This document shows, in pieces, positions 51,941 through 53,548 of a DNA stretch of 64,000 nucleotides. Both the position numbers and the translations under genes were made by a program. The notes under the pieces were generated by a model, which saw nothing but the letters and a program-made list of their open reading frames with translations, did not search any database and was not told the DNA's origin. The first letter of the stretch is position 1; every line of letters starts with the position of its first letter. This DNA is from Bacilli bacterium. Lineage in GTDB: Bacteria > Bacillota_I > Bacilli_A > RFN20 > CAG-826. The stretch lies in contig JAKSVE010000004.1 in NCBI GenBank assembly GCA_024408295.1, forward strand, positions 396-64,395, written 5' to 3'.

Positions 51941-53548
51941 ATGAGGTTTATAAATATGTTGATTAAACTTTTGTCTCTAGCAGTCATGTCTTCTATCACC
52001 TTTTCAGTTAGTCCAAGGATTGGCGATTTGGTGAATGCAATTGCACACGATATGGCCGTGGAAAGTGCTACTTTGAATGACCCACTCATCCGCCGAGCGT
52101 ATGAAGCTAGTTCTAATGATCCTAATATTTATTTGAATAACCGTTTTGCACCGTATTATTTCAAAAACCTCAATTATGGTTTTGGATACAACGAATTTGG
52201 TTCATGCGGATATGTAGCTGCTGGAATGTTGTTATCTTTTTGGGACACTTATTGGGATGATGATGTTGTTCCTGAGTATTATGAGGAACACGCTTCGCTT
52301 TATGTTAACCACACGCTTCTCGATGTTGATTCCCCTGGAAACGTTAGAGAACCGAACTCTTTTTATCAAGTCGATGCTTCAACCTATCACTCCAACATTA
52401 CAACATATAAAAACACTTATTTTCATTTTTTGTTGCTTGATATTGGCAAAACTCTCTTTAGTACAACAGCTGGCGATTATGGTATGACCTACCCCCAATA
52501 TGACACTCTATTCAGCCAGTATATTTATAATTACAGGGGGTATTCGACTAATGATGTTGAAATAGTTAAGTTTTCTAGCACAAACAGTGAATCCGTTAGG
52601 CAGAAGGCAATTGATTATGTAAGCAGAGGCATTCCTGTCAAACTTGGTATTGATAGACATGCCGTTGTTGCCTATGACTATGATGCTCAAAATGACAAAT
52701 TGTATTGCCATTTTGGATGGGGCGCTAACACTACACATGTTACAATTGAGTCATTAGGATACACTTCTTACAATAATGTTGTAGCTTTCGATTTTAAAAA
52801 CACACATTCACATTCTGATAATTATGAATATGTTGATGCTGGCGTCATTAATGGTCACTGCTCTTGTGAGGTTTCTATACCATACCAAATTGACGGTGAT
52901 TTTATGTACGTCGATGTGGAACCGACTTTTAGTTGGCTACAATATCCTTGTCTTTGTGAAGAAAAATGGTTCGAGGCTTCTAACGGCTACCTCTCCTTCA
53001 GATTGCTTAGGAACAACAAAACTGATTTCTACTCTTGTAGGTTAGGTTCCTCAAAGACTATCACGTTAAATGCTAACGCTTTAAAAGCTGTAGCAGATTA
53101 TAGGGCTACCGGTGCCTCCTCTTTCTATGTTGAAATTGCACTTTTTGAGACTTCTTCAAGCTCAAATCCTTTATATTATTTTTACAGAACCTGTTATTTC
53201 GCTAACAGCTATACGAACTATAACAATTTATTTCTTGAATTGAAAAATCCTAGAAAGAGTGGAACTACGTGGACCGTCACGGTTAAAAATTTGACCTGTG
53301 TCAAGGTTTCTGCCGAGTATAATAACAAGATGTGCAATTTTAATGACGCGAAGAATTGGACGTCATTAAGCAATATTTCTACAGTTACTATTAATCCAAA
53401 ATCATCAGTTAACATTCAAGTTTCCGAGAATTGGTTCGCAACCTCGATCGCAATTTCATGGCAGTTTGGTGGAAAACGTTACATTACATATGCAGACCAC
53501 CTGAACAACGCCAGCGGAACATTAACCCCATATACAAACAGAATTTAA
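51941..53548 (+). CDS. Secreted papain-fold cysteine protease-like protein, streptopain (C10)-like by motif; paralog A
   Basis: Signal-peptide-like N-terminus. An alternative ATG at 51956 has a better GAGG RBS. Cys motif FGSCGYVAAGMLLSFWD. His motif DRHAVVAYDYDAQNDKLYCHFGWGAN, compared with SpeB [24 protein letters not shown]. Confidence 0.5.
   Translation: MRFINMLIKLLSLAVMSSITFSVSPRIGDLVNAIAHDMAVESATLNDPLIRRAYEASSNDPNIYLNNRFAPYYFKNLNYGFGYNEFGSCGYVAAGMLLSFWDTYWDDDVVPEYYEEHASLYVNHTLLDVDSPGNVREPNSFYQVDASTYHSNITTYKNTYFHFLLLDIGKTLFSTTAGDYGMTYPQYDTLFSQYIYNYRGYSTNDVEIVKFSSTNSESVRQKAIDYVSRGIPVKLGIDRHAVVAYDYDAQNDKLYCHFGWGANTTHVTIESLGYTSYNNVVAFDFKNTHSHSDNYEYVDAGVINGHCSCEVSIPYQIDGDFMYVDVEPTFSWLQYPCLCEEKWFEASNGYLSFRLLRNNKTDFYSCRLGSSKTITLNANALKAVADYRATGASSFYVEIALFETSSSSNPLYYFYRTCYFANSYTNYNNLFLELKNPRKSGTTWTVTVKNLTCVKVSAEYNNKMCNFNDAKNWTSLSNISTVTINPKSSVNIQVSENWFATSIAISWQFGGKRYITYADHLNNASGTLTPYTNRI

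Follow-up and report, generated by a model that had tools for sequence, protein, structure and literature searches.

Two related genes on the forward strand of a 64,000-nt stretch of DNA (hereafter called the window) encode proteins with a putative cysteine hydrolase domain, and we refer to the open reading frame (ORF) at 51941-53548 as protein 1 and to the ORF at 59425-61707 as protein 2. The 64.6-kb contig belongs to a metagenome-assembled genome (MAG) labelled 'Bacilli bacterium', with locus tags MJ220_01465 to MJ220_01485. Mollicutes-like Bacilli (RF39, RFN20, Anaeroplasma-type) are uncultured, genome-reduced and abundant in human and animal guts, and both their nutrient acquisition and their interaction with the host are poorly known. 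An earlier reading of the DNA made from its letters only (the sequence-only reading) had described the two genes as streptopain-like (family C10) paralogs of sharply different base composition. The two genes and the domains recognised in their products are the following:

51941-53548, forward strand: protein 1, 535 amino acids (aa); the start chosen by NCBI, Met6, gives 530 aa
52052-52840, forward strand: papain-fold domain of protein 1, about aa 38-300, in the AlphaFold2 (AF2) model
52805-52870, forward strand: conserved linker HSHS...CSCE of protein 1, aa 289-310; the counterpart in protein 2 lies at 60394-60405
about aa 325-535 of protein 1, forward strand: pair of Ig/FN3-like beta-sandwich domains (AF2 model, full-length Foldseek search)
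59425-61707, forward strand: protein 2, 760 aa
61192-61704, forward strand: second Cys/His domain of protein 2, about aa 590-760, with the motifs NCYSYA and FHWYRQNPDGTWSHKNG

Comparison of the two proteins by BLASTP aligned aa 8-343 of protein 1 with aa 9-355 of protein 2 over 361 collinear residues, with 31% identity, 50% positives and an E-value of 3e-49. This confirmed that both ORFs exist with a collinear N-terminal domain and that the genes are paralogous with a common Cys/His domain, and the four Cys and His motifs quoted in the sequence-only reading were all found verbatim. In protein 1, GSCGYVA (aa 87-93) contains Cys89 (52205-52207), HAVVAYDYD (aa 240-248) begins with His240 (52658-52660), and GWG follows at aa 259-261. 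The corresponding elements of protein 2 are GTCNFVA (aa 88-94) with Cys90 (59692-59694), HTAIAYDYD (aa 257-265) with His257 (60193-60195), and GWG at aa 276-278. The N-termini of both proteins resemble signal peptides without a lipobox.

The structure of protein 1 was modelled with AF2 on the basis of a family alignment, both at full length and as the domain alone (aa 38-320), with model confidences (predicted local distance difference test, pLDDT) of 92.4 and 96.7, respectively. In the secondary structure assigned by DSSP, helix 89-104 begins with Cys89 and strand 240-248 with His240. Among 76-131 relatives, His240, Tyr245 and Gly259 are invariant, and at least 90% keep Asn84, Cys89 and Trp260, giving a predicted active-site layout with an Asn five residues upstream of the Cys and a Gly-Trp-Gly about 20 residues past the His. 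The model of protein 1 thus has the features of clan CA cysteine hydrolases, i.e. a helix that opens with the Cys, a beta-strand that bears the His and, with Asn84, a candidate oxyanion-hole residue. Searching the PDB with the domain model in Foldseek yielded nothing at E<=0.001. The fold-identifying matches were papain-fold Cys enzymes, namely UfSP, Alr0975, CtaG, Josephin clippase, ZUFSP, interpain A, SpeB, C39, IdeS and calpain; the best E-value was 6e-3, the best TM score was 0.51, for the phytochelatin-synthase-like Alr0975, and the likeness was restricted to the core. The full-length model of protein 1 retrieved only Ig/FN3-type beta-sandwich matches to the C-terminal half and was set aside as uninformative on the catalytic domain. 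The papain-like fold proposed earlier for the common domain is thus supported by the AF2 model, the weak and generic papain matches in Foldseek and the motif pattern, and we predict that both proteins are exported by the Sec route and act as cysteine hydrolases whose catalytic domain is papain-like (clan CA).

Profile searches showed that the family is only distantly related to the C10, C39-like and NF045837 models, with the two window proteins below every curated cut-off. The best and most consistent sequence match was to NF045837 (NCBIfam Mplas_Cys_pep, an uncharacterised putative cysteine peptidase of Mycoplasma), which also shares the Mollicutes-type hosts: protein 1 scored 36.8 bits (E 3.8e-9) in an alignment spanning aa 83-292 and taking in the Cys and His regions, and protein 2 scored 39.9 bits (E 4.5e-10), both below the cut-off of 45 bits. 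At E<1e-3, 75 of 76 homologs (the 76 relatives below) matched this model, the best with an E-value of 5e-17. The window proteins are clear NF045837 homologs, but lie outside the curated subfamily, from which they differ in their sub-threshold scores, their extra C-terminal domains and, in the protein 1 clade, their ATP-binding cassette (ABC) partners. PF13529 (Peptidase_C39_2) was matched at E<0.01 by 43 of the 76 relatives (best E 7e-11) and by protein 2 with 18.5 bits (E 0.0031), which is below its gathering score of 24 bits; protein 1 had no Pfam match. Common to the C39_2 domains and the window proteins are the motif of the His region and the papain-fold core, and C39 domains are among the Foldseek matches. 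Classical C39 domains are the cytoplasmic N-terminal part of peptidase-containing ABC transporters (PCAT), i.e. exporters, and cut double-glycine leaders, whereas the window proteins bear signal peptides, are encoded by separate genes and have ABC neighbours of the FtsX/MacB type and not the PCAT type. Neither phmmer with each protein nor hmmsearch with the 76-sequence family profile gave a peptidase match among PDB chains at E<=10. A Mycoplasma cysteine protease, CysP (MGA_1153), cleaves IgG according to PMC11720521, which cites Cizelj 2011.

Both proteins would be extracellular proteases or isopeptidases. The domain could instead be a papain-fold enzyme but no protease, i.e. a transpeptidase, an amidase or isopeptidase, or an amide-bond former acting on small molecules or surface polymers. 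The best Foldseek neighbours, the isopeptidase UfSP, Alr0975 (TM 0.51) and CtaG, point in this direction, and FtsX-partnered hydrolases elsewhere act on peptidoglycan peptides, as described in PMC6355983, PMC6705773 and PMC10694151. However, these structural matches are weak and the nearest sequence models are named peptidases, and peptide scavenging fits with other genes of the window, those for an Opp-type importer and for M24 and M29 peptidases; we consider a non-proteolytic function unlikely.

The assignment to C10 made in the sequence-only reading did not hold. Neither protein matched PF01640 (Peptidase_C10) at E<=1 in the Pfam scan, and a single one of the 76 relatives did so at E<0.01 (E 2.4e-5). 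In the Foldseek search, interpain A (3bb7) ranked 24th (E 0.043, TMq 0.25), SpeB (2jtc) 25th (E 0.046, TMq 0.26) and 1dki 40th (E 0.18), with alignments of 109-119 columns and TM scores of 0.22-0.28, all behind UfSP and the phytochelatin-synthase-like proteins. The structural likeness to SpeB (E about 0.045, TM 0.23-0.28) therefore concerns the generic core only. SpeB is made as a zymogen with a large N-terminal prodomain, and a C10-type prodomain is absent here: the catalytic Cys is at position 89 or 90, and about 20-60 residues lie between the signal peptide and the folded domain, which starts at about aa 38. Because there is no PF01640 match, no PDB match, only a weak rank for SpeB and interpain A and no prodomain, membership in C10 is unsupported. 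What the window proteins do have in common with SpeB and interpain A is that they are secreted bacterial Cys-His peptidases by prediction, that their core is papain-like and that the catalytic His is followed by a motif of the G-W-G type; what separates them is the missing PF01640 and PDB sequence matches, the missing prodomain and a structural alignment limited to about 110-120 residues at TM<0.3.

True but divergent C10 members could still account for several observations. The order Cys...His and the G-W-G after the His, found in both proteins, recall the SpeB motif NWGWGG (as quoted in the sequence-only reading), although C10 does not have these features exclusively; interpain A (18%) and SpeB (16%) show the top sequence identities in the Foldseek list; and a few relatives carry precomputed PF01640 matches, one of them being called 'C10 family peptidase' by NCBI. 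Such a relationship is nevertheless improbable, given that the family profile retrieves neither SpeB nor interpain from the PDB at E<=10 and that the matches to C39_2 and NF045837 are far more consistent, in addition to the PF01640, Foldseek and prodomain results above. 'C10 family peptidase' labels on these proteins are thus unjustified by the present evidence. On the basis of the profiles and the model, we regard the family as uncharacterised, putative clan CA-type cysteine hydrolases without a close solved relative.

In an exhaustive search of 1.84 billion representative sequences, the family comprised 796 clusters (50% identity) at E<=1e-3, and 377 when the threshold was tightened to E<=1e-10. 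When one genome per species was scanned, 78 loci were returned (eight assemblies were listed twice), nearly all of them in gut or rumen MAGs and often in several copies per genome. These MAGs are labelled Bacilli, Bacillales, Erysipelotrichaceae, Anaeroplasmataceae, Mollicutes, Enterosoma or Alectryobacillus. The sequence-only reading had singled out the occurrence of such proteins in a Mollicutes-like gene context as notable. With 78 loci in such MAGs and a Mycoplasma model of relatives curated by NCBI, the family is characteristic of gut and rumen Mollicutes-like Bacilli and no oddity there.

In a neighbour-joining tree of the catalytic domain with 127 sequences, protein 1 fell inside a clade of proteins of 530-555 aa and protein 2 formed a long branch beside a clade of about 770 aa. 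In a second tree with 57 taxa and 200 bootstrap replicates, the placements of protein 1 and protein 2 were recovered in 71% and 65% of the replicates, respectively, and the two proteins were sisters in 0 of 200. Each is nearer to proteins of other genomes than to the other one. The phylogeny that the sequence-only reading had called for thus puts the two proteins in different clades; they are old paralogs of different subfamilies.

The two proteins also differ beyond the catalytic core. In the linker that follows the papain-fold domain, the pattern H-x-H-S-x-N-Y ... C-x-C is conserved, with His289, Asn294 and Cys307 kept in at least 90% of the relatives; it is modelled as a beta-hairpin plus a short helix and could be a metal or disulfide site. 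In protein 2, a middle region separates the papain-fold domain (Cys90, His257) from a C-terminal Cys/His domain of 170 residues with the conserved pattern NCY[AS]YA ... QPG ... YKVA ... DYHWYRQ..DG.WSHK.G ... DP. The latter domain had no Pfam match and no relevant PDB match. Of the loci retrieved, 25 contain it; it occurs also as stand-alone hypothetical proteins of 170-350 aa in unrelated bacteria (Oligoflexales, Clostridiaceae and Anaerolineales), and it may be a second enzyme domain. An internal duplication of the peptidase domain in protein 2 was considered and dropped, as hhalign gave a probability of 0.1% for the C-terminal against the N-terminal domain.

Directly downstream of protein 1 are two ABC genes:

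53606-56347, forward strand: ABC1, fused ABC_tran (1.3e-29) and FtsX (9.5e-16) domains (Pfam), MacB architecture with a large extracytoplasmic region
56352-58901, forward strand: ABC2, fused ABC_tran (1.1e-33) and FtsX (1.7e-8) domains (Pfam)

A gene of this kind, encoding about 915 aa with ABC_tran and FtsX domains, was present at a distance of at most 162 bp from the peptidase gene in nine of nine independent loci of the protein 1 clade. Five of these loci (the window, L003, L083, L090 and L091) have two co-directional ABC genes and four (L086, L088, L092 and L093) have one divergent ABC gene. No such ABC gene was found within 1 kb of any other peptidase ORF examined. Because the MacB/FtsX-type neighbours are invariable, protein 1 perhaps works with its ABC partners. 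Control of papain-fold hydrolases by FtsX-type ABC proteins has precedent in PMC6355983, PMC6705773 and PMC10694151, and PMC5985334 reviews MacB-type ABC systems under the term 'mechanotransmission'. According to these four papers, the ABC 'mechanotransmitter' FtsEX binds and activates an extracytoplasmic papain-fold hydrolase, namely PcsB, CwlO or RipC. The protein 1 loci resemble FtsEX-PcsB/CwlO/RipC and MacB in having an ABC ATPase and an FtsX-type permease with an extracytoplasmic domain, coupled genetically to a secreted papain-fold hydrolase. They differ in that ATPase and permease are fused as in MacB, that the extracytoplasmic region is far larger, that there are often two paralogous ABC genes and that the hydrolase domain is neither CHAP nor NlpC/P60; moreover, the coupling is here known from the gene neighbourhood. 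By analogy, the extracytoplasmic domains of the ABC proteins might hold protein 1 or switch it on, as FtsEX does with PcsB, CwlO and RipC, a mechanism that we put forward as possible, with the balance somewhat against it.

The base composition of the two genes differs as described in the sequence-only reading, whose hand counts for the same 20-residue stretch, 24/60 G+C at 52214-52273 and 35/60 at 59701-59760, were exact; third positions in this stretch are identical between the genes in 5 of 20 codons. Over the whole genes, the G+C content is 0.374 for protein 1 and 0.491 for protein 2, and the G+C content at third codon positions (GC3) is 0.351 versus 0.624, the contrast being still larger in the common N-terminal domain (0.326 versus 0.726). 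The 37 other genes of the window, taken as backbone, have a mean GC3 of 0.455 (standard deviation 0.047, range 0.363-0.542), so that the two genes deviate in opposite directions, with z-scores of -2.2 for protein 1 and +3.6 for protein 2. Their operon neighbours deviate likewise (ABC1 0.358 and ABC2 0.380; lipoprotein 0.667 and TetR 0.627). Comparing the two genes as DNA gave essentially no alignment, with a best blastn match of 66% over 108 nt (E 0.011).

Both genes lie in an island that starts at a tRNA gene and comprises, in addition to the genes above, the following features:

50440-50515, forward strand: tRNA-Ala(cgc) (ARAGORN; Rfam tRNA 61.8 bits); the island begins right past the CCA end
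50528-50557, forward strand: hairpin terminator, copy A, with a 12-bp stem and a T-run; a diverged copy of the junction hairpin
50692-51333, forward strand: AbiEi-like protein, 213 aa (PADLOC AbiEi PDLC02251, E 5.5e-26, full-length; no Pfam match)
51305-51928, forward strand: Xre-type helix-turn-helix (HTH) regulator, 207 aa (200 aa in other assemblies; Pfam HTH_3, E 9e-7)
59062-59295, forward strand: junction element B, with about five direct GGGTGCGTAA-like units some 21 nt apart (59062-59156), a hairpin (59196-59225) and a TetR remnant (59268-59295)
61714-63246, forward strand: lipoprotein, 510 aa, with an LAGC lipobox and a BamE-like segment (Pfam BamE, 1.3e-6), 7 nt past protein 2
63326-63517, forward strand: junction element C, with three GGGTGCGTAA-like units (63326-63375), a hairpin (63415-63444) and the true TetR 3' end
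63487-63960, reverse strand: C-terminal part of a TetR-family regulator (Pfam TetR_C_8, 5.2e-7; GC3 0.627)

The low-GC unit 3' of tRNA-Ala is thus composed of the AbiEi-like gene, the HTH gene, protein 1, ABC1 and ABC2. The AbiEi-like gene is followed by the Xre-type HTH gene and not by an AbiEii toxin, and the HTH gene order of the window was also found in L001 and L084. The two halves of the lipoprotein encoded 3' of protein 2 are homologous to each other, and its residues 36-193 and 263-437 both match one and the same region of L010; in L010, L011 and L065, its counterpart is two tandem genes of 267-292 aa located 3' of peptidases of the 770-aa class.

Two contigs independent of the window, L094 from a JGI assembly and L095 from a Logan assembly, were informative on the history of the island. 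They were reached via the cluster member P0137; looking up contigs by the exact protein, protein 2 and P0080 gave none on record, and a metagenome scan with protein 2 as query gave distant relatives only. Both contigs match window 59268-63281, i.e. protein 2 and the lipoprotein, at 97.6%. In both, an AbiEi-like/HTH pair (71.5% identical to 50492-51847) runs straight into protein 2, and there is no protein 1 and no ABC gene; the promoter stretch of the AbiEi-like/HTH module is 95-98% identical to that of the window. The module is located 3' of the transfer-messenger RNA (tmRNA) gene in L094 and L095 and 3' of tRNA-Ala(cgc) in the window, with homology starting at the CCA end (window 50440-50561; L094 3429-3875; L095 2688-3134). 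Immediately 3' of the tmRNA gene is a 49-nt element that is 96% identical to window 59181-59229 and 63400-63448; it begins at the CCA end and has no clear tRNA sequence inside. Past the lipoprotein, the assemblies diverge: the window continues with TetR, L094 (9821-16233) with a 1980-aa RHS/YD-repeat protein and small ORFs of GC3 0.21-0.28, and L095 (8619-12453) with a 679-aa trypsin-like protein, a 323-aa protein and an M10-like protein. The site has the appearance of a hotspot for genes of secreted proteases and of toxins.

Separate acquisition of the two genes follows from these data, because their clades and conserved neighbours differ and L094 and L095 lack the protein 1 cassette. The sequence-only reading had already argued for separate histories and against a local duplication, and this part of it is strongly supported by the clades, the architectures, the neighbours and the two contigs. 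From the presence or absence of the cassettes and the separate clades it follows in turn that the opposite GC3 deviations reflect separate acquisitions. We conclude that the locus is a variable tRNA/tmRNA-adjacent island of cassettes with different origins, and that the protein 1-ABC cassette (about 51848-59267), probably exchanged together with its regulator genes, and the protein 2 cassette go back to separate acquisitions. Such patchiness is found elsewhere in the family. The protein 1-type cassette of L003 (9794-17007) has a GC3 of 0.47-0.50 versus 0.53-0.65 in the surrounding genes, and the 783-aa copy in L027 (9890-12241) has a GC3 of 0.45 among genes of 0.72-0.86 (genome GC3 0.78).

Three other explanations of the contrast in composition were weighed. 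The high GC3 of protein 2 could stem mainly from gene-specific codon selection, i.e. expression level or domain constraints, and not from foreign origin. In keeping with this, the peptidase domain of protein 2 has a GC3 of 0.79, which declines along the gene to 0.50 at its 3' end, and in the relatives L010, L011 and L065 the peptidase domain is richer as well (GC3 0.76-0.84 versus 0.66-0.69 for the whole gene), a gradient that points to mosaic origin or domain-specific codon bias. However, the lipoprotein and TetR share the bias, the closest relatives with the same lipoprotein neighbour occur in genomes of GC3 0.55-0.69, the L094 locus is a patchwork of GC3 0.21-0.67, and the presence of cassettes varies between assemblies, so that codon selection as the main cause has little to recommend it. 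A chimeric MAG contig joining two organisms at about 59 kb is a very improbable explanation. The source is indeed a MAG, and the presumed joint coincides with repeats at which Logan short-read contigs break (L084 corresponds to window 50513-59210, and L085 ends there too). Yet a second MAG has protein 1, ABC2 and protein 2 in the same order under the consecutive accessions MCQ2797701, MCQ2797703 and MCQ2797704, the hairpin and promoter region heading the island are alike in both settings, and the protein 2 cassette is equally atypical in L094 and L095 (protein 2 0.62, lipoprotein 0.67), whose backbone GC3 of 0.43-0.47 matches that of the window. Local duplication of one gene with divergence in place and later GC drift or codon-usage selection is scarcely credible: a distance of just 5.9 kb, a common strand and a common domain would fit it, but each gene is nearer to proteins of other genomes, they are sisters in none of the 200 bootstrap trees, their C-terminal architectures and conserved neighbours differ, their DNA is unalignable, and assemblies with the 97.6%-identical protein 2 cassette are without protein 1.

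The junctions of the island contain repeated elements. Near-identical terminator hairpins occur three times, at the end of the tRNA and of the units of protein 1 and protein 2. The second and third hairpins lie inside direct repeats of about 150 nt (59147-59295 and 63366-63517, about 95% identical) that flank the cassette of protein 2 and the lipoprotein; the left repeat ends in a 27-nt remnant identical to the TetR 3' end, the intact version of which lies in the right repeat, and this remnant suggests insertion or exchange by recombination. In each junction, an array of three to five GGGTGCGTAA-like units is followed by ATTGT.T.AAAATAGGTAATC and then by the terminator hairpin. The units are spaced 20-22 nt apart, and a pattern search for them gave six window matches at no more than one mismatch compared to 1.66 expected from shuffles, all six in the intergenic stretches 59062-59156 and 63326-63375. 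A GGGTGCGTAA-like array is also present past the RHS-toxin cassette in L094 (16298-16400). The Rfam scan of the intergenic junctions matched only the tRNA, and Tandem Repeats Finder did not report the GGGTGCGTAA arrays. These arrays could be protein-binding sites or recombination junctions, and the cassettes would have moved by homologous exchange at the conserved junctions. To our knowledge, 10-nt direct repeats at a spacing of about 21 nt combined with a terminator hairpin correspond to no described type of attachment (att) site. Like known tRNA/tmRNA genomic islands, the locus starts at the 3' end of tRNA-Ala or tmRNA, has a patchy, atypical composition and contains variable cassettes with repeated flanking junctions; unlike them, it shows no integrase or recombinase and no clear att-type repeat of the tRNA 3' end.

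Taken together, we consider it probable that the two proteins are exported papain-like hydrolases of an uncharacterised family, and that they are old paralogs residing in separately acquired cassettes. Both genes would encode exported papain-like Cys hydrolases of distant subfamilies of one family. The protein 1 subfamily would travel with one or two MacB/FtsX-type ABC genes and might be controlled outside the cell by their extracytoplasmic domains; the protein 2 subfamily would carry an unrelated second Cys/His domain and be accompanied by a lipoprotein gene. The adjacency of the cassettes would be explained by their common location in a variable island that begins directly past a tRNA-like gene. 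Several points weigh against this account. Every structural match is weak, the call of the fold resting on consistent low-scoring matches together with the motif pattern, and the top structural neighbours are isopeptidases, transpeptidases and an amide synthase, not broad proteases; enzyme activity is a prediction for all members of the family. The link to the ABC proteins is genomic only, and these could equally be exporters or resistance pumps merely co-regulated with the peptidase. Concerning the island, all sequences are metagenome assemblies, and neither the ORFs of 50.2-64 kb nor the genes called in L094 and L095 contained an integrase or recombinase domain. In addition, L094 and L095 have no backbone sequence in common with the window; instead of conspecific strains, they may represent another species to which the protein 2 cassette passed recently.

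The papain-fold family defined here is secreted by prediction, comprises hundreds of clusters, is typical of these bacteria and usually occurs in several copies. One subfamily is strictly linked to ABC genes, which provides a directly testable hypothesis on the extracellular control of such hydrolases, and the locus is a natural example of the swapping of secreted protease and toxin cassettes at a tRNA/tmRNA-adjacent hotspot. More tentatively, and with the chances clearly against it, the protein 1 clade and its MacB/FtsX-type ABC proteins might form a membrane-anchored, ATP-driven extracellular cysteine-hydrolase machine, or the junctions of iterons and hairpins might represent an undescribed mode of tRNA/tmRNA cassette exchange. 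If true, such a machine would mean that a new papain-fold family of Mollicutes-like gut bacteria works by the FtsEX principle of 'mechanotransmission', possibly for foraging of proteins or peptides or cleavage of host or competitor proteins rather than for remodelling of the cell wall.

The window also contains an Opp-type peptide importer, consisting of an 881-aa SBP_bac_5 protein, two permeases and two ATPases, as well as M24 and M29 metallopeptidases (3984-12425, 17933-19126 and 47407-48648). A role of the two hydrolases in foraging for peptides would fit these genes; they could equally well cleave proteins of the host or of competitors.

Two further roles were considered for the peptidases and dropped. 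For a phage-borne origin, only one viral contig with a relative was found, the junction hairpin was without viral match and neither peptidase had a PHROGs match; for a role in anti-phage defence, PADLOC gave no match for the peptidases and matched only the AbiEi-like gene and generic ATPases. UGA is a stop codon in the source genome, as ABC2 ends in TGA and two class-I release-factor genes are present.

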